Assembly (NCBI GenBank): GCA_041288095.1
Contig: JBGGMJ010000198.1
Location: forward strand, 1-26,981
Direction: 5' to 3'
DNA from: Myxococcota bacterium
Lineage (GTDB): Bacteria > Myxococcota > XYA12-FULL-58-9 > JALHOP01
DNA length: 26,981 bases
Under the pieces are notes generated by a model. The model searched no databases. It was not told the origin of the DNA and was given only the letters and a program-made list of their open reading frames with translations. Made by a program: the position numbers and the translations under genes. Numbering within the stretch: the first letter of the stretch is position 1; every line of letters begins with the position of its first letter. Positions 8,460-19,585 of the stretch are shown here, piece after piece.

Positions 8460-8566
8460 GGCGCGCTCTCTAGCTTTTAGTGTCCGAGAAGGGAAGCCCG
8501 GTTGGCAGGTCGGATCGTCGTGCTTAGGTTGCCGACCGGACGCAGTACTTTTGGTGGGGGACGATC

Positions 8567-9043
8567 ATGGGGATGTTCGATTCGATGCTCGGTAACATGG
8601 CGAAGAAGTCGCAGGCGACGCAGGGCTCGCAAGAGCGCTTCACAACGCTCAAGCAGAAATACCAGCCGGTCTTGAACAAGATCGAGCAGAGCGGTGTGCA
8701 GCTGCAGAATCTCCACGTGGAGAACGACAAGCTCTTCGTTCGTGGCATCGCGCCGTCCGAGACGGTGAAGAACCAGATCTGGGACGAAGTGAAGCGTATC
8801 GATGCGCGCTGGGCGGACCTGCAACTCGAGCTGACGACGAGCGGTGGTGGCGCGCAGACCGAGGCGAAGTTCGAGCGCTATACGGTCAAGGCGGGCGACA
8901 CGCTCTCCAAGATTGCCCAGCAGTTCTACGGCGACAAGATGGCCTATCAGCGCATCTTCGAAGCCAACCGCGACATCCTGAAGGACCCGGACAAGATCGA
9001 GGTCGGTCAGGTGATCAAGGTGCCGAAGCTGGCGATGGCCTAA
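8567..9043 (+). CDS. LysM peptidoglycan-binding protein with BON-like N-domain (Kbp/YgaU-like)
   Basis: C-terminal YTVKAGDTLSKIAQQFYG...IFEANRDILKDPDKIEVGQVIKVP; SD-like GGGGA upstream. Confidence 0.88.
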   Translation: MGMFDSMLGNMAKKSQATQGSQERFTTLKQKYQPVLNKIEQSGVQLQNLHVENDKLFVRGIAPSETVKNQIWDEVKRIDARWADLQLELTTSGGGAQTEAKFERYTVKAGDTLSKIAQQFYGDKMAYQRIFEANRDILKDPDKIEVGQVIKVPKLAMA

Positions 9044-9053
9044 AGAGCCACGG

Positions 9054-9084
9054 GCGGGCACGCGTCGTAAAAGCGCGTGTCCGC
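9054..9084. terminator. Stem-loop between convergent genes
   Basis: GCGGGCACGCG / CGCGTGTCCGC form an 11-bp stem (one G-U) with a 9-nt loop; no clear U-tract. Confidence 0.5.
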
Positions 9085-12140: not shown

Positions 12141-13496
12141 ATGCTTCCTCGCCTGAACAGCAGTGCCGCCGCCGAGCATTTGGCCGCGGCCCTCCGTTTC
12201 AAGACCATCGTCGTAAGCCCCGAGGGCCCGGTGCCGAAGGCCGAGCTCCAGGGCCTGCGGGACTACCTCGCGAAGACCTTCCCGCTGGTGCACCGGCACC
12301 TCGCGGTCGAGCAGGTCAACGAGAGCCTGCTGTTCACCTGGAAACCCGCTCAGCCCTCGAGCGAAGGCGGCCTGCTCTTGATGGCCCACATGGACGTGGT
12401 GCCGATCGAGCCGGGCACCGAGACGAAGTGGACGCATCCGCCGTTCGCCGGCGTCATCGACCAGGACCTCATCTATGGGCGCGGCGCCATCGACGACAAG
12501 GCGCGGCTGGTCGGTACCCTCGAGGCCGTCGAGAGCCTGCTCGCGGCCGGAGTCACGCCCAAGCGCACCGTGTATCTTTCCTTCGGAGCGGACGAGGAAG
12601 TCGGCGGCGCCACCGGCGCGAAGGTCATCGCCAAGACGCTGCAAGAACGCGGCGTCAAGCTCGACATCGTGCTCGACGAAGCCGGCGCCGTGACGCAAGG
12701 CGTGAATCCCAACGTCCAGAAGCCGATTGCCAGCATCGGCATCGCCGAGAAGGGCTACGTCTCGTTCGAGCTGACGGCGAAGGGGCCGCCGGGCCATGCC
12801 GCCTTCCCGGCCAAGAACACCGCGATAGCGGTCTTGTCCTCGGTCATCGACGATCTCAACAGCAACCAGATGCGGGCGCGCATGACCCCGCTCTTGCGCA
12901 ACACCTTGAAGGCGCTGGGTCCGCACATGCCGTGGCCCCAACGGCTCGCCGTGCGCGCCGGCAAGTTGGGTGAGTGGCTGCTTCTGCGGACGATGGACGC
13001 GACCCCGACCACGGCGGCGCAGATCCGTACGACCTTCGCGCCCACCATCCTCAAGGCGGGCATCAAGGACAACCTGGTGCCGTCGATGGCGACGGCGGTG
13101 GTGAACTTCCGCATCTTGCCCGGTGAGACCGTCGCCGACGTGGAGGCGCACGTGAAGCGCGCCATCGGTAACGCGCCGGTGGCCGTGAAGGTGCTGGCCG
13201 GCGCTCATGATCCTCCGGGAGTTTCGTCGTCCGCCGACGCGGGCTTTCTCGCCATGGCGGAGGCGGTGCGCGCGACCTTCGGCGAAGACGTGGTCATCGC
13301 GCCGACCCTGGTCGCTGGCATCACCGATTCGCGCCACTTCGACGCCATCGCCAAGAACACCTACCGCTTCACCCCCGTGCGGCTGACCGCGCGCGACGTC
13401 GCGACCATTCACGGTACCGACGAGAAGATCAGCGTGAACGCTTTCGCGGACTTGGTGCGCTTCTATCAGCGCATCATCACGAAGCTAGCGCTCTAG
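12141..13496 (+). CDS. M20 family metallopeptidase (CPS1/PM20D1-like carboxypeptidase)
   Basis: AHMDVVP, GRGAIDDK, DEE, LDE, AEKGY and IHGTDE metal-ligand motifs. Start is ATG 12141 or GTG 12135. Confidence 0.92.
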   Translation: MLPRLNSSAAAEHLAAALRFKTIVVSPEGPVPKAELQGLRDYLAKTFPLVHRHLAVEQVNESLLFTWKPAQPSSEGGLLLMAHMDVVPIEPGTETKWTHPPFAGVIDQDLIYGRGAIDDKARLVGTLEAVESLLAAGVTPKRTVYLSFGADEEVGGATGAKVIAKTLQERGVKLDIVLDEAGAVTQGVNPNVQKPIASIGIAEKGYVSFELTAKGPPGHAAFPAKNTAIAVLSSVIDDLNSNQMRARMTPLLRNTLKALGPHMPWPQRLAVRAGKLGEWLLLRTMDATPTTAAQIRTTFAPTILKAGIKDNLVPSMATAVVNFRILPGETVADVEAHVKRAIGNAPVAVKVLAGAHDPPGVSSSADAGFLAMAEAVRATFGEDVVIAPTLVAGITDSRHFDAIAKNTYRFTPVRLTARDVATIHGTDEKISVNAFADLVRFYQRIITKLAL

Positions 13497-14353
13497 CGGC
13501 AGACGTAGTCCGCGGGCATCGTCGAGGCGATGCCGCTCGCGGCGATGTTCTTCAACGTCTGCGGGTGCACGGCGCCGCCGATGAATGGGCTCTTGAAATC
13601 GTAGCTGCCGGCGTAGACCAGGTCTTTGCCGCGCACGAAGGGCGCGTCTTCGAGGCGGTAGCGGCTGCCGAGGCGCGCCGGGAGTCCTCGGCCAAGGTCG
13701 AAGATCTCGAGGTCGCCCTTGGCGAGATCCATTTCGGGGCTCACGACCCACCAGCGGCCGTCCTTGGGGTAGGCGACCATGGTGTGAACGATGGGACGCT
13801 GGGGACCGGCGGGTTCCGCGCTCGGTCCACGCGGGCACATGGTCTGGTAGCCGGCGACGTCCATGACCACGAAGAAGCGAAGCTCGAGCGACGGGTCACG
13901 CAGCCAAGCGCGATGCGCCGTGGCCTTGGCGTAGTCCAGGCAGTTGAGGAAGGTGCGCTCGGCGAAGGCCTGTTCGCCGGTGCGCGCGAGCTGCATGCCG
14001 GGCAGATCCTTGGTCGCGGCGCGCGGCGCGGCTCGACTCACGGCCTGTTCGTAGCGGCGGACGCTCGCGGGCGCGAGGAGGCGCTCGACGTCGTGGCCCG
14101 CCGCGGCGAGGGCCTTGCGGATCGCCGCTTGCTCGCGCTCGCGGACCACGGGGTCGGCGGTGAAGAGGTTGTGGTACGCGAAAGCGTACACCTCGCGAAC
14201 CGGCACCTCGTTGTGCGCTTGGGCGTTGCGAACGTCGCGCAGTGCTTCGAGCAACGCAGGCGGAAGCTTCGCGGCGGACGCTCTGCTGATCGGCGTGACG
14301 CACGTACCCGATACCGCACGCATCCCGCCGGCGCTGGTGACGCTGATGCTCAT
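13493..14353 (-). CDS. Hypothetical protein, possible transglutaminase/papain-like Cys protease fold
   Basis: NCLDYA...IVHTMVAY..DGRWWVVSP spacing resembles transglutaminase-like C-H-D cores; ATGA overlap with the upstream gene. Confidence 0.55.
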   Translation of the reverse strand: MSISVTSAGGMRAVSGTCVTPISRASAAKLPPALLEALRDVRNAQAHNEVPVREVYAFAYHNLFTADPVVREREQAAIRKALAAAGHDVERLLAPASVRRYEQAVSRAAPRAATKDLPGMQLARTGEQAFAERTFLNCLDYAKATAHRAWLRDPSLELRFFVVMDVAGYQTMCPRGPSAEPAGPQRPIVHTMVAYPKDGRWWVVSPEMDLAKGDLEIFDLGRGLPARLGSRYRLEDAPFVRGKDLVYAGSYDFKSPFIGGAVHPQTLKNIAASGIASTMPADYVCR

Positions 14354-15648
14354 CGTTTGGCGCGCTCGCGCTCGACTGCTTGCATGATGCGACCGGCGAG
14401 GAGGCCGGCGCGGTCCCCATAGTGGCGCTCGCCCCAGTTGTAGCGGCGGATGGTGATGGCGTTGGGTCCGCTAAAAAAGGCTTCGGGATTGGCCTCGGTG
14501 CCGAAGCGAAAGACACGGCCACGGGCGCTAGCGGGGAACGAGCTCGGGATGCTGAACCCGGCGGCGCGGAGCTGCGCCACCGTCATTTCTCGGTCATCCT
14601 GCAGGCCGCGGATCGCCGCGGGCGTGCCTCGCAGCTCGACTCCGATGGGTTGACCTTGAGTGTAGCGCTCGCCCGGACGGTCGCGGCCGACGTTCGCATA
14701 GAAACGCGCCGCGAGCTCGGCGCTCTGCACCGGGTGCCAGGGGTCGAGGTCGCCGGCGAGCAGCACCAGATTCGAGGGCATGAACTGGCACCAGCCGAGC
14801 GCTCCAGCGGACGAGCCACCGAGCGTTGCGAGATCCCAGTTGCGCTCACGCGCGACCCGCACCAGCGCGCGTAGCTCACCGCGGAAGAACTCGGTGCGCT
14901 CGCCGTCGAAGGCGCCGCGCACGATTTGTTGGAAGGCGTTGTGGCCGCCGGAGAAGCCACCCATGTTGGTCTCGCCGCGTAACGTGCCGTAGATGGCCGC
15001 TACGTCGATGCCGTGCCTCCTGGCCGCTTCCTCGGCCTGCGGTCCGAACTCGAGGGCGTACGCCGTGCCCCGCTGAATGCCCGATTCGAGATAGGGCCGC
15101 ACCGAACGCTCGAACGAGGTGCGCGTGTCTGGTGGACGTGCGCCGGGGGCGACGTTAGCCGTGGCCCGCGGCAAGGCAACGCGCTCGACCAGCGCCATGA
15201 GCCGCTGCTGCTCCGCCTGGTCGCCGCCGGCGATGTCGCGGATGAGCCGCTGGACTTCGGGGCGCTGGTGGTACGGGCGCCCGACTCCTGGCTGGCGCTG
15301 CGCTTCGGCTTCGGCCTCGCGCCAAGCCTGCAGGCGGCGCTCTTGCTCGACGGGATCATTCGAGCGCGGCGGGAAGGGCACCAGCTGGCCGACCTCGACG
15401 CGCGGAGGTTGCATGGCGGCGGCCCAATCGAACGCCGGAAGCGCTTCGCGGGGCGCTTCGGTCACGGCCCGCTCGGGTGGGGGCAGGGCGAGCGGTGCGG
15501 TCACCGGGCCTTGGCTCAAGCGCGTTGGGCCCGCCGTCAGACGGTCGCGGTCGTCGGTCGGAGACACGGGCGGCAAGACGGCCTCGTGCTCGGCCGTTGG
15601 GACGGCGATTTCCTGGCCCGCTTGGACCGCTCGGACGGTTGTGCTCAT
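14350..15648 (-). CDS. Lytic murein transglycosylase (MltB/SLT_2-like) with Pro-rich N-terminal extension
   Basis: GETNMG (catalytic Glu), FFRGELRAL, GSSAGALGWCQFMPSN and ITIRRYN; no signal peptide. Confidence 0.85.
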   Translation of the reverse strand: MSTTVRAVQAGQEIAVPTAEHEAVLPPVSPTDDRDRLTAGPTRLSQGPVTAPLALPPPERAVTEAPREALPAFDWAAAMQPPRVEVGQLVPFPPRSNDPVEQERRLQAWREAEAEAQRQPGVGRPYHQRPEVQRLIRDIAGGDQAEQQRLMALVERVALPRATANVAPGARPPDTRTSFERSVRPYLESGIQRGTAYALEFGPQAEEAARRHGIDVAAIYGTLRGETNMGGFSGGHNAFQQIVRGAFDGERTEFFRGELRALVRVARERNWDLATLGGSSAGALGWCQFMPSNLVLLAGDLDPWHPVQSAELAARFYANVGRDRPGERYTQGQPIGVELRGTPAAIRGLQDDREMTVAQLRAAGFSIPSSFPASARGRVFRFGTEANPEAFFSGPNAITIRRYNWGERHYGDRAGLLAGRIMQAVERERAKR

Positions 15649-15657
15649 GCCCAGCCG

Positions 15658-15685
15658 TTATCGCCGTGCAGGCCATTCGAATTGC
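15658..15685 (-). promoter_or_regulatory. Putative sigma28-like promoter of the lytic transglycosylase operon
   Basis: On the minus strand, GCAA-N16-GGCGATAA lies 9 nt before ATG 15648. Confidence 0.65.
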
Positions 15686-15719
15686 TCCGGAAGGACTGAA
15701 CGCCTGGCAAGTCGCCCGA

Positions 15720-18700
15720 TTAGCGGCGGTGCTCGAGCCTCCAGCTCGTGAGCGTGCCGGTGGTGCCGGCGACCCGGTCGGCGACCTCGAGCTGCCAGGT
15801 GCCGGCGACCGGGTCGCCGTGCAGGCCAAAAAGGGTAGGCGCGTTCTCGACCGTGTAGGTGACATCCACGACGCCGGCGACACCGGTGACGCTCGAGGAC
15901 AGGATGAGGCGCTCCCCGGCGGGGCTCACCAAGCGCAGCTCGAGCTGGCTGGGGACCGCGTGGGTGACCCGTACGTGGACGCGCAGGTCCTCGACGCGCT
16001 GCCAGGGCGGGGCGGCGAGCGTGGCGCTGTTCGTGAAGGTGCCGTTGTCGACGAGCGCAAGTCCGGTGCCGCCGACGGCGGTGTCGAAGGGCGTATCGAC
16101 CGGCATGAGTCCGCCGCCCGAGGCGGTGACCTCACCATCGAACCAGCCCACGTTCGCGTCCCAGTTCGCGCACGCGTCTCCACAAGCACGTGGCGTGATG
16201 TTGGCCGGACGGTGGCGGACGATGTCATCGCTGGTGCCGAAGGCGAGGTCGGGGCCGCGGTTCACAACGAAAACCCCAAAGATGCCGAGGACGCCATCCA
16301 GGGTCGGCGTCGGCTGCTCGGCGTAGTACGCCAAAGAGTCGCCGACGAGCACGGGCAAGCGCTCGTCGGTTGGGCTGGCCGTGATCGAGACAGTTGCCCC
16401 GCCGAGCGTGTGCATGCGCACGTCCCAGTCGCCGTTGAGCTCGGAGTAGAGCACGATATTGCCTTCGATGCGCAGGTCGGCGCGGGACATGCCGCCTGCC
16501 GCGATGACGGTGCGCGCTCCGCCAATGGGGAACGTGGCGATGGAGGGCATGCAATTCGTGTCGGGCGCGCTGCCGCGCGTGCCGTCGCATAGGTCATTCG
16601 GATCATCGGCATAGTCGGCGTAGACGATGTTCCCGAGCGAGATGTCCGGGCTCACCGCGCGCGTGCCGGCCACAGTGAAGTCGTAGGGCGTGTCATCGCC
16701 GCCACCGACCCACCCGTCGGGCCCGAGTGCTACGCCCTTCAGGCGACTGTCGAGGTTACCGTCGAACCAGTTGCCACTGGGATCGAGAGACAGATCTCCC
16801 CACACCACGACACCGGCGTCGACGCGCGGCCAGTGGAACGTCCCCGGACCCGCGAGCTGCGTCGGCCCTTTGTCGTCGCTCGTGCCCGGAATACCGTCCG
16901 CTCCGGCGTAGTAGATCATGACCGTGCCACCAGGTTGATCGATCCATACGAAGTAGCCGTCGTCATCGACGTCCATGTCCGCTAAAGTGGTCACGTTCGG
17001 CTCGAGGCGCAGAAAGCCACCGGCCTCGGCATTGAGGAAGACGGGGCGGCGCTCGTTGGCGTCGAGGAAGGCGTAGAACCTGCCGGCGAGCGTTCCGCTG
17101 GGACCGCCCTCGCCGGAGCTATCCGCGACCTGGAAGGTGAGTGGCTCGCCATGGACGGAGTAGGTCGCCGGCCGTGCCTGCAGGCCGGGATAGGTCAGGC
17201 CTCCTATGATCATCGTGCCGCTCGCCGAGACACTGCCGAGGTCGCCACCGGTGAAGGCAGCGTTGGTGAGCGGCAGCGTCGTCCCCGTCGTCAGATCGCG
17301 CATGCCGTCGGCGGTCGATGTGAATGACGTGAAAAACGCCTTGTCGCCGTTGGCGGCCGTGAGGGTCGGGATGTCGTACAGGTGCACGACCGGAAGGTCG
17401 TCGCCATTGCCGAACACGTGGTCTGGGCCGGTGTCGTAGATGTCCCAGTCACCACCACCGACGTCGATGAGGATGCGGTCGTCGCCGAGCAGGACGTTGT
17501 CTCCCGGTGGAATCAACCACTCGCCGCCATCATAGCCGCCGCCCGGTTTGCCGTCGTTGCCGAGGTTGAACACGTAGTCGCGTGTCCCGGAGCGCTGATC
17601 GGTCCACAGCACGTGACGCGCGCTCGCTTGCAGCTTGCACGGGTGGAAGCCGAAGACGGATGAGGCAGCGGAGACCACGACGGCTCCCTGGCCGGCGTCC
17701 ATGATGTCGGGCCGTCGATCCGCGCCGTAGTTGTAGAAGGTGAGGCGGTTGGCGTTGCTGCCGTTGCCGAAGAATACGCCGGTCGGCGTGCCGGTTTGGC
17801 ACGTGCTCCCAACGATGCCGTTCCCGATGGTGACGATGGCGCCGTCGTCTACCGTCGAGAGCGCCTCGTCCGCTCCAACGTACATGGCCTTGATGACCGG
17901 CGAGAGCTGAGTGCTCAGGTCCGCGAACGCGAGCACGAGGCCGCCCATGTTCGGTGCCTGGAGCATGAAGTTGCCGGACCTGTTGGTGTAGACGATCTTG
18001 CTGCTGCACTCGAGCGCGTCCGCGCTCGCGCGCCTGCAGAGGTTGAGCTCGTGATTGCGGCAGACCTCGGGCGCCGACCCACACGCCGGCTGCGTCTGGT
18101 TGGTGGTGAAATTCTGCGTCGTAAACGTCGCCAGGCCCGAGCCGGCGTGGAAATCGCTGTACGTGCAGTTGACGCAGGCGTTGGGGAGGGCCCGGAGGGG
18201 AGTGTCGGCGACGGTGACGGTAACGCCGGTGCTGGGGTTGCCGGCGCGATCCACACCGCGGATGACGTAGACCGTGCTGCTGCCCGAAGCCGCGCCTGGC
18301 AAGACGATGCGGGGCTCGGTGGCGACCGCGGTGTAGTCGGCGTATGGGCCGCCCAGGATCTCGTACGTTACGAGACCCCCTCCGGGCTCGCGCGATGCGC
18401 CGAGTAGGACACCAACCTCGCTGGTGAGCAACCCGGAGACAATCTCGGTGAACGCGTGCGGCGCGCTCGGCGGCTGCGAGTCCTCGTGGATGCTGAGAAC
18501 GCCTTGCGCGGCCGGCGACGTCATGTTGCCGAAGACGTCGCGCTCGCGGATCCACAGGGTCGTCGTCGCGTCCTGCGCGAGCGTCGCCAGCGCCAAGGCA
18601 CCCAAGGTCGACGTGGACGTCCACGTGGTGCCGTCGGTCGAATAGACGTAGCCGTCGAAGTCGTCCGGCACCGGCACCATCGAGTGGAAGAACACCGTGA

Positions 18701-19535
18701 GGCTGGAGGCGTTGACGAAGACCTCGGGTGGCGTCGGCGTGTCGATGACGACGTTGCCCGACGGCGTTTGCGTGTCGAGCGCGAGAGCCAGTGGGACGGC
18801 TGCGACGTTGCCCGCGGCGTCGGCGAGCAGAATCTGAAGCAGCTTGGAGCCGTCGCCCGGGGTCAGCGTCACCGGCAGCGTTTCGGCATAGGAGACCTCG
18901 AGGGTCGCTGGCAGATCGCCGCTCACCGTGGCACTCGCCGGCACCTCGCCGCCGGCGGGGAGGATCGGCCGCAGGGTGATCGCCAAAACATCCACCCAGG
19001 TAACGCCGCTCGCCACGACCGCTTCGTCGACATCGATGCCGTCGACGATCGGCGCGGTGTAGTCGAGCGTGACGGTGCCGATGGTGGCATCGCGGGTGAC
19101 GCGACCCTGCGCATCGGCGAAGGTGCCGCGGATCGTGGCGTCGCCCTCCGCTTCGCCGCCCGTGGTCTCGTACGAGAAGACGAAAGGCCCGGTTGAGCCG
19201 CCGGATTCGTAAACGAGCGCGCCCGCGAAGGCGCCGCTCACGATGCTCAACGTCGGCGCTCCGATGAGCGCGTGATCCGTCGAGAACTCGACCCTGATGC
19301 GGCGGTTGGCGCCGGCGACCGGAGGGGTGATCGACGGAGTGCCCGCGACCTGCGCCCCGTCACCGGTCGCTGGCGTCGTCGGCAAGCACAGACCCAGTCC
19401 GCCATCGCAGACATAGCCGTTGGGACAAGCCGGGGTTTGGACGCTACAGGTCACCAGCGCGGAGCTGGGGACACCGAGGTCGGCAAGACAGGCGGGGAGG
19501 GTAAGTAAAGCGAGGACCGGGGCGCGTAATCGCAT
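15720..19535 (-). CDS. Large surface lipoprotein: Cys-rich N-terminus, Ig-like repeats, beta-propeller-like region, C-terminal proprotein convertase P-domain
   Basis: Lipobox in MRLRAPVLALLTLPAC (start 19535); DxxGN Ig-like ends; PxxxGxxVVW-type repeats; C-terminal LRVHVRVTH...L.LVSPAG...GTWQLEVAD...GTLTSWRL. Confidence 0.8.
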   Translation of the reverse strand: MRLRAPVLALLTLPACLADLGVPSSALVTCSVQTPACPNGYVCDGGLGLCLPTTPATGDGAQVAGTPSITPPVAGANRRIRVEFSTDHALIGAPTLSIVSGAFAGALVYESGGSTGPFVFSYETTGGEAEGDATIRGTFADAQGRVTRDATIGTVTLDYTAPIVDGIDVDEAVVASGVTWVDVLAITLRPILPAGGEVPASATVSGDLPATLEVSYAETLPVTLTPGDGSKLLQILLADAAGNVAAVPLALALDTQTPSGNVVIDTPTPPEVFVNASSLTVFFHSMVPVPDDFDGYVYSTDGTTWTSTSTLGALALATLAQDATTTLWIRERDVFGNMTSPAAQGVLSIHEDSQPPSAPHAFTEIVSGLLTSEVGVLLGASREPGGGLVTYEILGGPYADYTAVATEPRIVLPGAASGSSTVYVIRGVDRAGNPSTGVTVTVADTPLRALPNACVNCTYSDFHAGSGLATFTTQNFTTNQTQPACGSAPEVCRNHELNLCRRASADALECSSKIVYTNRSGNFMLQAPNMGGLVLAFADLSTQLSPVIKAMYVGADEALSTVDDGAIVTIGNGIVGSTCQTGTPTGVFFGNGSNANRLTFYNYGADRRPDIMDAGQGAVVVSAASSVFGFHPCKLQASARHVLWTDQRSGTRDYVFNLGNDGKPGGGYDGGEWLIPPGDNVLLGDDRILIDVGGGDWDIYDTGPDHVFGNGDDLPVVHLYDIPTLTAANGDKAFFTSFTSTADGMRDLTTGTTLPLTNAAFTGGDLGSVSASGTMIIGGLTYPGLQARPATYSVHGEPLTFQVADSSGEGGPSGTLAGRFYAFLDANERRPVFLNAEAGGFLRLEPNVTTLADMDVDDDGYFVWIDQPGGTVMIYYAGADGIPGTSDDKGPTQLAGPGTFHWPRVDAGVVVWGDLSLDPSGNWFDGNLDSRLKGVALGPDGWVGGGDDTPYDFTVAGTRAVSPDISLGNIVYADYADDPNDLCDGTRGSAPDTNCMPSIATFPIGGARTVIAAGGMSRADLRIEGNIVLYSELNGDWDVRMHTLGGATVSITASPTDERLPVLVGDSLAYYAEQPTPTLDGVLGIFGVFVVNRGPDLAFGTSDDIVRHRPANITPRACGDACANWDANVGWFDGEVTASGGGLMPVDTPFDTAVGGTGLALVDNGTFTNSATLAAPPWQRVEDLRVHVRVTHAVPSQLELRLVSPAGERLILSSSVTGVAGVVDVTYTVENAPTLFGLHGDPVAGTWQLEVADRVAGTTGTLTSWRLEHRR

Positions 19536-19585
19536 GCGGCGGGGAGCATGCGCGCAGGGGCGGGGGCTCCGCAATGACCAGCGTC

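Follow-up and report, generated by a model that had tools for sequence, protein, structure and literature searches.

A very divergent MltB/Slt35-family protein without a recognisable export signal in an uncultured genus of Myxococcota

How does an enzyme whose relatives cut peptidoglycan meet a wall when no export signal can be found on it? The question is raised by a gene in a 26,981-nucleotide contig of a Myxococcota bacterium (GenBank assembly GCA_041288095.1, contig JBGGMJ010000198.1), the whole of which is called the window below. In the textbook view family 3 lytic transglycosylases are lipoproteins or periplasmic enzymes that carry an EF-hand, whereas the gene at 14350-15648 (-) encodes a 432-residue protein, assigned to the SLT_2 (family 3-type) lytic transglycosylases, that has neither the signal nor the loop. 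A preliminary description of the window, made from the DNA and a list of its open reading frames (ORFs) alone, had proposed an MltB-like enzyme here and regarded it as consistent with an antibacterial effector.

The assignment draws on the ORF list, Pfam, the PDB and an alignment of orthologues. A search against the Pfam SLT_2 profile (PF13406), which the preliminary description had put forward as a check, gave a clear match over residues 130-405 (14434-15261 (-)) with an E-value of 2.3e-27 and a score of 96.4 bits against a cut-off of 24.3, covering positions 4-279 of the 292 in the profile. The NCBIfam models compared (the MltB equivalog NF008029 / TIGR02282 and MltB_2, TIGR02283) were all missed, at 72.5 against 449, 65.7 against 281.4 and 53.7 against 248.45 bits. 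Among solved structures the closest in sequence were E. coli Slt35 (1d0k, 4.7e-15) and the P. aeruginosa proteins SltB1 and SltB3; the Slt35 alignment, made with HMMER, spans residues 124-411 at an identity of about 25-30% as estimated by eye only. By profile and alignment the gene product is a very divergent member of the SLT_2 (MltB/Slt35-type) lytic transglycosylase family, and the Pfam and Slt35 matches uphold the MltB-like enzyme proposed at 14350-15648 (-).

The catalytic residues are retained. Glu226 (GAG codon at 14971-14973 (-), within RGETNMG) aligns with Slt35's catalytic Glu (chain index 123, or Glu162 by index count), and the active-site motif GSSAGALGWCQFMPS (residues 278-292; 14773-14817 (-)), re-read from the DNA, falls on Slt35 GSFAGAMGYGQFMPS. 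In a seven-row orthologue alignment (A1), the first row of which is the cluster representative P0001 and differs from the window protein by one residue (T for A in LPAFDW), the residues E226, S279, Q288, F289, M290, Y403, N404 and Y410 and the whole GSSAGALGWCQFMPS motif are invariant in all seven rows. By index count the eight residues correspond to Slt35 positions 162, 216, 225-227, 338, 339 and 344, which we take to be functional positions of that enzyme. The re-reading, the alignment and the seven rows agree with the intact GET and GSxAGAxGxxQFMPS motifs of the preliminary description. The enzyme is likely still active on peptidoglycan, and we infer that it would cleave its substrate to 1,6-anhydro products.

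Directly after GSSAGALGWCQFMPS the protein reads NLVLLAGDLDP (14740-14772 (-)) and then W. This remnant of the EF-hand Ca2+ loop is six residues shorter than its Slt35 counterpart because, in the HMMER alignment, Slt35 VDFSGDGHINLWD faces 4 + 2 gap columns. Slt35 ligand positions 237, 239 and 243 are deleted and position 248 is His, with three of the five ligand positions gone by index count. The six-residue deletion confirms the absence of the loop that had been read from the sequence. The loss is not unique to this enzyme, as a loop of EF-like type was picked up by a crude pattern in 87 of 138 related representatives. A passage of PMC12547810, a paper of 2025, presents the EF-hand as the distinguishing mark of family 3 lytic transglycosylases and suggests that it mediates Ca-dependent binding of SltB1 to PBP2. 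For a protein that has neither the signal nor the loop, an SltB1-like PBP2 link to the elongation machinery is unlikely.

No possible start of the gene gives a Sec, Tat or lipoprotein signal, as judged here and below by a hydropathy heuristic rather than a trained predictor. The frame cannot be extended upstream because an in-frame TAA lies 12 nt 5' of the ATG, and of the 10 internal ATG, GTG or TTG codons among the first 200, none is followed by a hydrophobic stretch. Averaged over 15 residues, the Kyte-Doolittle hydropathy of the protein peaks at 1.18, at residue 284 within the catalytic motif; on the same measure four neighbouring proteins with evident signals score 1.9-2.3. The sole RR pair among the first 128 residues, R105-R106, is followed by no hydrophobic run when read by eye. 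The upstream stop and the low hydropathy maximum thus bear out the missing lipoprotein or Sec signal of the preliminary description, and the Tat or Sec signal at an alternative start, which it had considered as an objection to its own reading, was not found behind the upstream stop or at any of the 10 internal starts.

In place of the signal peptide there is an N-terminal extension, as had been described; its length, however, is about 125-129 residues rather than 130-190, and its composition had to be corrected, since residues 1-85 are rich in Ala and Pro, and residues 86-125 in Pro, Arg, Gln and Glu. Composition, hydropathy and a structure model mark residues 1-85 (15394-15648 (-)) as a variable segment that is predicted to be disordered and has no hydrophobic core, with predicted local distance difference test (pLDDT) values of 25-31 and a short helix at 75-78 as the only secondary structure in an otherwise poor model. 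This segment is truly coding, since its GC content at third codon positions is 0.79, its length is kept and orthologues are 35-61% identical over it (66-89% in the catalytic part). Residues 86-128 (15265-15393 (-)) comprise, from the A1 columns and the model, a conserved linker (GQLVPFPPRSNDP) and then a predicted helix at 99-118, which is called confidently (pLDDT 81-86) within the poor overall model; the A1 columns G87...R129 are invariant. Among the first 25 residues, 13-16 are Ser, Thr, Pro, Gln, Gly or Ala, and acidic and large hydrophobic residues are few, a composition that appears compatible with type III secretion signals and is not specific for them.

The family is small and narrowly distributed. 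A word-indexed search of 5.8 billion clusters returned nine proteins, seven of them close (59-100% identity, one a fragment) and two distant. A hydrophobic stretch is missing from all six full-length orthologues, whose sequences begin MS.TV/MAGPL, so the possibility that orthologues are all ordinary lipoproteins, which the preliminary description had raised against itself, does not apply. When 1.84 billion representatives were searched exhaustively with HMMER, 1148 hits had E<=1e-3, 47 reached 1e-10 and a single one reached 1e-30; this one is the cluster of the enzyme family itself, and behind it ranks a paralogue that the genus also holds (P0016, 34% identity, E 1.4e-20). Among 41 related genomes searched, the enzyme was found in all four genomes of one uncultured Myxococcota genus (its own, G000, and G001-G003), with the frame open in each; the other matches were weak domain hits in two genomes (G004 and G022) and paralogues within G001 and G002. 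In a GTDB set of one genome per species an orthologue was present in three records, all metagenome-assembled Myxococcota and one of them labelled Bdellovibrionales.

Export signals are the rule around this family. From 149 next-best representatives, 11 without the motif patterns and 12 fragments were set aside; of the 126 that could be assessed, 117 had a signal-like or transmembrane-like stretch, six had a weaker but visible one and three had none. Two of these three, P0016 and P0020, group with the enzyme family, and the third, P0034, falls elsewhere. P0020 (366 residues) begins with a 70-residue Pro/Ala/Ser/Thr-rich N-terminus, has no signal and lacks the EF-hand ligands. Eight other Myxococcota SLT_2 loci were read: six have a classic signal, one lies within a longer fused protein and one (in G004) is borderline and interrupted by two in-frame TAG codons. 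An SLT_2 relative was present in 29 of 301 genomes, a count that includes one unpublished genome (G195) whose locus was not read. The best SLT_2 match among relatives (318 bits; L044, G004:C343:1429-2301) contains two in-frame TAG codons, which could be the mark of a pseudogene, a sequencing error or read-through.

The relations were examined in a quick tree of 51 rows: six of the family, two paralogues, P0020, P0034, one row from G005 and 40 signal-bearing hits. The last were proteins of <450 residues drawn from P0017-P0063, with fragments, longer proteins and lower hits omitted, and the G005 row is just 18% filled, so that its placement is meaningless. In this tree the enzyme family (support 100*) has a stem 2.18 changes per column long; P0020 (91) and the pair of genus paralogues that lack a signal (95*) group with it. 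The simplest reading is that a signal-less lineage was duplicated and that one copy then diverged very fast. Fast divergence is also seen within the genus, where the enzyme evolves much faster than its flanking genes: identities to G002, G001 and G003 are 80, 79 and 71% for the enzyme, 97, 95 and 92% for the adjacent OmpA-like gene and 99, 98 and 95% for the patatin gene.

As its catalytic residues are kept without change in a protein that otherwise diverges, the enzyme presumably still meets peptidoglycan and would have to cross the inner membrane by a non-Sec route. The genome was searched for export machinery. It encodes an FHIPEP-family gate protein (799 bits; contig C31, L011:3248-5395) and, on contig C92 (L013:668-15601), a type III cluster with SctJ, a FliG_M-like protein, SctN, SctO and a FliK-like protein. 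The C92 cluster also holds a DUF4781 protein and large ORFs of unknown function, and the FHIPEP gene stands apart on C31, near genes for a PP2C phosphatase and a sigma-70-family protein. Flagellin was not found in this genome, and its type III secretion system (T3SS) core is non-flagellar. A Tad marker (CpaB/RcpC) is present, with no visible tie to the enzyme. Matches to TssC (PF05943), a sheath-family marker of type VI secretion systems (T6SS), were absent from all four genus genomes, Hcp had no match in the enzyme's own genome and VirB4 was not found; the genome at hand is 90% complete and the genus genomes are 84-97% complete.

On these grounds we tentatively favour an active wall cutter that would leave the cytoplasm independently of Sec and Tat by means of its disordered N-terminus, most plausibly through a T3SS-like apparatus. 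The disordered, polar extension would serve as the export signal, and the enzyme would exit through the genome's own type III-like export apparatus. Its target may be the cell's own wall, cut locally in the manner of the wall enzymes exported by flagellar T3SSs, or the wall of prey. A T3SS is proposed as the route because its core is the only such apparatus found and because a disordered polar N-terminus fits it. A bolder version, which we regard as very unlikely, sees in the enzyme, along with the paralogue that also lacks a signal, the first cargo to be recognised for the myxobacterial needleless T3SS: an MltB-type lytic transglycosylase that would have lost its Sec signal and Ca loop and would pass through the T3SS export gate to dissolve the wall of contacted prey. 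A passage of PMC12075869 describes such a system in Myxococcus (T3SS*) as devoid of a secretin, a needle and a translocon, indispensable to prey lysis and dispensable for killing, with effectors that are unknown. If true, the cargo version would explain why prey lysis requires the machine and killing does not.

Several observations weigh against export by a T3SS. The enzyme gene lies on contig C198 and the T3SS genes on C31 and C92. No genetic or regulatory link to a T3SS was seen at the enzyme locus, where the neighbours are OmpA-like, P-domain, M20 and patatin genes, and no chaperone gene was evident. FHIPEP occurs in 39 of the 41 related genomes and the enzyme in four, so their co-occurrence is uninformative. 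A delivery domain shared with other proteins was considered and rejected: a profile hidden Markov model of residues 1-128 (six rows) found only the enzyme itself among 38,868 stop-to-stop frames of its own genome (next E 0.084), and outside the enzyme family, in the 1.84 billion representatives, residues 1-111 were unmatched, with three weak domain hits that reach into 112-114. The N-terminal region is thus unique to the enzyme. The AlphaFold2 model built from A1 has a mean pLDDT of 46.7 and a predicted template modelling score of 0.29 and is too poor for fold comparison or for judging the active-site geometry. The join of the family with P0020 is a meeting of long branches, as the tree program warned. 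Finally, a long branch together with a lost Ca loop and a lost signal could mark a changed function.

That last point is the starting position of the rival that survives best, although we think it unlikely: a cytoplasmic enzyme with another role, for instance on a cytoplasmic glycan or a wall precursor that it would bind or cleave, or one in decay, for which a missing signal simply means missing export. The long stem and the lost loop would follow naturally, as would an SLT_2 score of 96 bits where the genus paralogue reaches 238 and NCBIfam scores far below the MltB cut-offs; moreover, the 12 SLT (PF01464) matches in the genome, none of them on the T3SS contigs, can cover housekeeping. However, the catalytic Glu and the active-site positions remain invariant in orthologues down to 59% identity and the frame is open in all four genomes. 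Nor do we know of a cytoplasmic MurNAc-GlcNAc polymer that could be the substrate.

The gene is part of a conserved chromosomal backbone and not of an island. In the four genus genomes this backbone reads aminotransferase, orf186, OmpA-like lipoprotein, enzyme, patatin, orf162 and orf271, except that the G003 contig stops short of the first two, which were not seen there. Inserted genes flank the enzyme on both sides and vary across the genus. In G000 and G002 a gene for a 1284-residue P-domain lipoprotein lies upstream of the enzyme and a 286-residue protein gene and an M20 peptidase gene lie downstream; G001 has a different gene upstream, and G003 has a 356-residue protein gene downstream.

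The effector reading of the preliminary description, taken here to mean that the protein would be harmless in the producer's cytoplasm and be injected into competitors or prey by a T6SS or other injector to lyse their walls in a contact-dependent manner, seems to us quite improbable. It accommodates intact catalytic residues on a protein without a Sec signal, as well as the fast evolution relative to the neighbours and the narrow distribution; myxobacteria are predators, and the T3SS*-dependent lysis effectors are among the things that PMC12075869, in the passage cited, leaves to be found. Against it, the T6SS and VirB4 markers gave the negative results above (TssC in four of four genus genomes, Hcp in the enzyme's own), neither PAAR nor VgrG nor a shared N-terminal domain is present, and the site is conserved backbone. 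Neither is there an exported immunity-like neighbour, since the 286-residue protein has no signal and its gene does not adjoin the enzyme in two of the four genomes. What is left of the effector proposal is the presumed need for a non-Sec route to a wall, the cell's own or another's; the genomic context lends no support to the step to an antibacterial effector.

We give a similarly small chance to release by lysis, in which the enzyme would be stored in the cytoplasm and let out through lysis or a holin-like pore, in the manner of an endolysin or of type 10 secretion, to cut the cell's own or neighbours' walls. Among diderms, endolysins are the classic case of wall enzymes that lack a signal, and the absence of a signal on this enzyme is in keeping with such a store, but a 125-residue disordered extension is, to our knowledge, not an endolysin feature. 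The lambda endolysin is itself a lytic transglycosylase, of family 4, according to a passage of PMC12547810. The enzyme has no PHROG match, however, and of seven neighbours just one has, the OmpA-like gene, over its OmpA-like part and to entries of unknown function. No small membrane protein gene lies adjacent in the window, and the site is chromosomal and syntenic in all four genomes. The weakest rival, folded export as the passenger of a signal-bearing partner (Tat hitch-hiking, as known for signal-less subunits of some enzymes exported with a Tat partner) or by a weak signal that hydropathy does not see, is highly improbable, given that the sole RR pair lacks a following hydrophobic run, that the 286-residue partner is signal-less as well and that the signal-bearing neighbours vary between genomes.

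The gene for the 286-residue protein (13493-14353 (-)) starts with an ATG that overlaps the TGA of the enzyme gene (ATGA). This facultative downstream partner belongs to an orphan family. It adjoins the enzyme gene, and is translationally coupled to it, in two of the four genus genomes (G000 and G002); in G001 it has another location, and in G003, which is 84% complete, this query did not find it. A role as obligate operon partner or immunity protein was therefore rejected. The protein has no signal peptide by hydropathy and no Pfam, NCBIfam or PHROG match. Its family has six homologues, in which C138, H190 and D198 are invariant and a C-terminal Cys is present. A VIA-align comparison of its model (pLDDT 74.9) returned weak rows for LapG (Z 7.6, a value in the range that VIA-align deems common), TglA, arylamine N-acetyltransferases, vasohibin and SseI, and leads from the Atlas agree with the transglutaminase-like rows; when Foldseek compared the model with the PDB, no match reached E<=0.001 (best 0.12). 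As the weak rows are consistent with one another and the Cys, His and Asp are invariant, the model probably represents a transglutaminase-like Cys-His-Asp fold.

On the other side of the enzyme, between it and the OmpA-like gene in G000 and G002, the predicted lipoprotein of 1284 residues (15720-19574 (-)) has an LPAC lipobox and a C-terminal proprotein-convertase P-domain; it is 57% identical in G002 and is missing from this position in G001 and G003. Farther off in the window, a 158-residue LysM-domain protein without a hydrophobic N-terminus is encoded at 8567-9043 (+), overlapped on the opposite strand by a longer ORF (8477-9061) that has no family match.

Immediately upstream of the enzyme, the box CGATAAC (15657-15663 (-)), 9 nt 5' of the ATG, holds the in-frame TAA and is a possible -10-like element. 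Its core CGATAA, 8-10 nt before the ATG, is invariant in all four genus genomes despite a mean column identity of 53%, and it is kept whatever gene lies upstream. A sigma-70 scan of 13300-16000 found no sites. The box would fit the -10 element of a leaderless transcript, and because of its invariance a leaderless mRNA, close to the nearly leaderless one that the preliminary description had derived from a putative promoter, is possible despite the negative scan.

What is new here is a clade of this family that has neither export signal nor Ca loop and whose catalytic residues are under selection, in a diderm phylum whose ordinary SLT_2 proteins are Sec-exported. Should the enzyme be active and exported, it would show that a wall enzyme of Myxococcota can be exported independently of Sec and be a candidate for the missing lysis effectors of the needleless T3SS, with an N-terminal tag that can be tested. 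Should it be cytoplasmic, a lysozyme-like fold would have been re-used inside the cell. With a family that occurs in a single uncultured genus, the reach of either outcome is modest.

Signal-less wall cutters that are harmless in the cytoplasm of their producer have precedents among T6SS effectors that are peptidoglycan glycoside hydrolases, such as Tge/Tse3 and VgrG3. Those proteins are found alongside T6SS genes and an immunity protein of the periplasm, neither of which was found for the enzyme. Literature searches for a signal-less myxobacterial lytic transglycosylase or an MltB-type T6SS effector yielded nothing relevant, judged by titles and the openings of abstracts. Closer to the favoured route, FlgJ of Proteobacteria is a wall enzyme exported by the flagellar type III apparatus, and Pseudomonas syringae HrpH, of the SLT (family 1) type, is reportedly a lytic transglycosylase that lacks a Sec signal and is a T3SS substrate (Oh et al. 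2007). Bacillus subtilis CwlQ is described in the abstracted part of a preprint (bioRxiv 10.1101/2021.01.13.426625) as a lytic transglycosylase secreted by the flagellar T3SS, and a passage of PMC2745422 gives hrpH as a T3SS-associated, HrpL-dependent gene. CwlQ and FlgJ, which have no Sec signal and cross the membrane by a type III gate, belong to flagellar regulons and to other fold families, whereas flagellin was not found in the enzyme's genome and the T3SS there is non-flagellar and unlinked to the gene. Likewise, HrpH is encoded in a T3SS pathogenicity island under HrpL regulation, whereas the gene studied here is T3SS-unlinked and of the SLT_2 type.

Outside its own family the nearest relative is the genus paralogue (P0016; G002 L015:10404-11552 (+) and G001 L008:1249-2421 (+)), which is likewise signal-less and has a Pro/Ala/Ser-rich N-terminal tail. 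At 382-390 residues it is a canonical SLT_2 protein by score (238 bits over a full-length match); its acidic EF-hand ligands are replaced (VRYRGEGRPNLWEP) but, unlike in the enzyme, the length of the loop is kept. At one end of a cheA-cheW-cheR-cheB cluster the paralogue gene converges with cheB; the enzyme's own genome (90% complete) was searched for the paralogue and gave no match. P. aeruginosa SltB1 (4ANR, 5O8X), a soluble family 3A enzyme, is the second-best solved relative (1.4e-14, 2.2e-14); a passage of PMC12547810 places it in the periplasm with a Ca2+ EF-hand, whereas the enzyme has neither signal nor loop. The closest solved relative, E. coli MltB/Slt35 (1D0K, 1QUS, 1LTM; family 3A), differs in carrying a lipoprotein signal where the enzyme has a 125-residue disordered extension, and a full EF-hand loop where that of the enzyme is shortened. 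The two nevertheless share the order of the SLT_2 domain, the catalytic Glu, the G-S-x-A-G-A-x-G-x-x-Q-F-M-P-S motif and the R-Y-N ... Y positions near the C-terminus.

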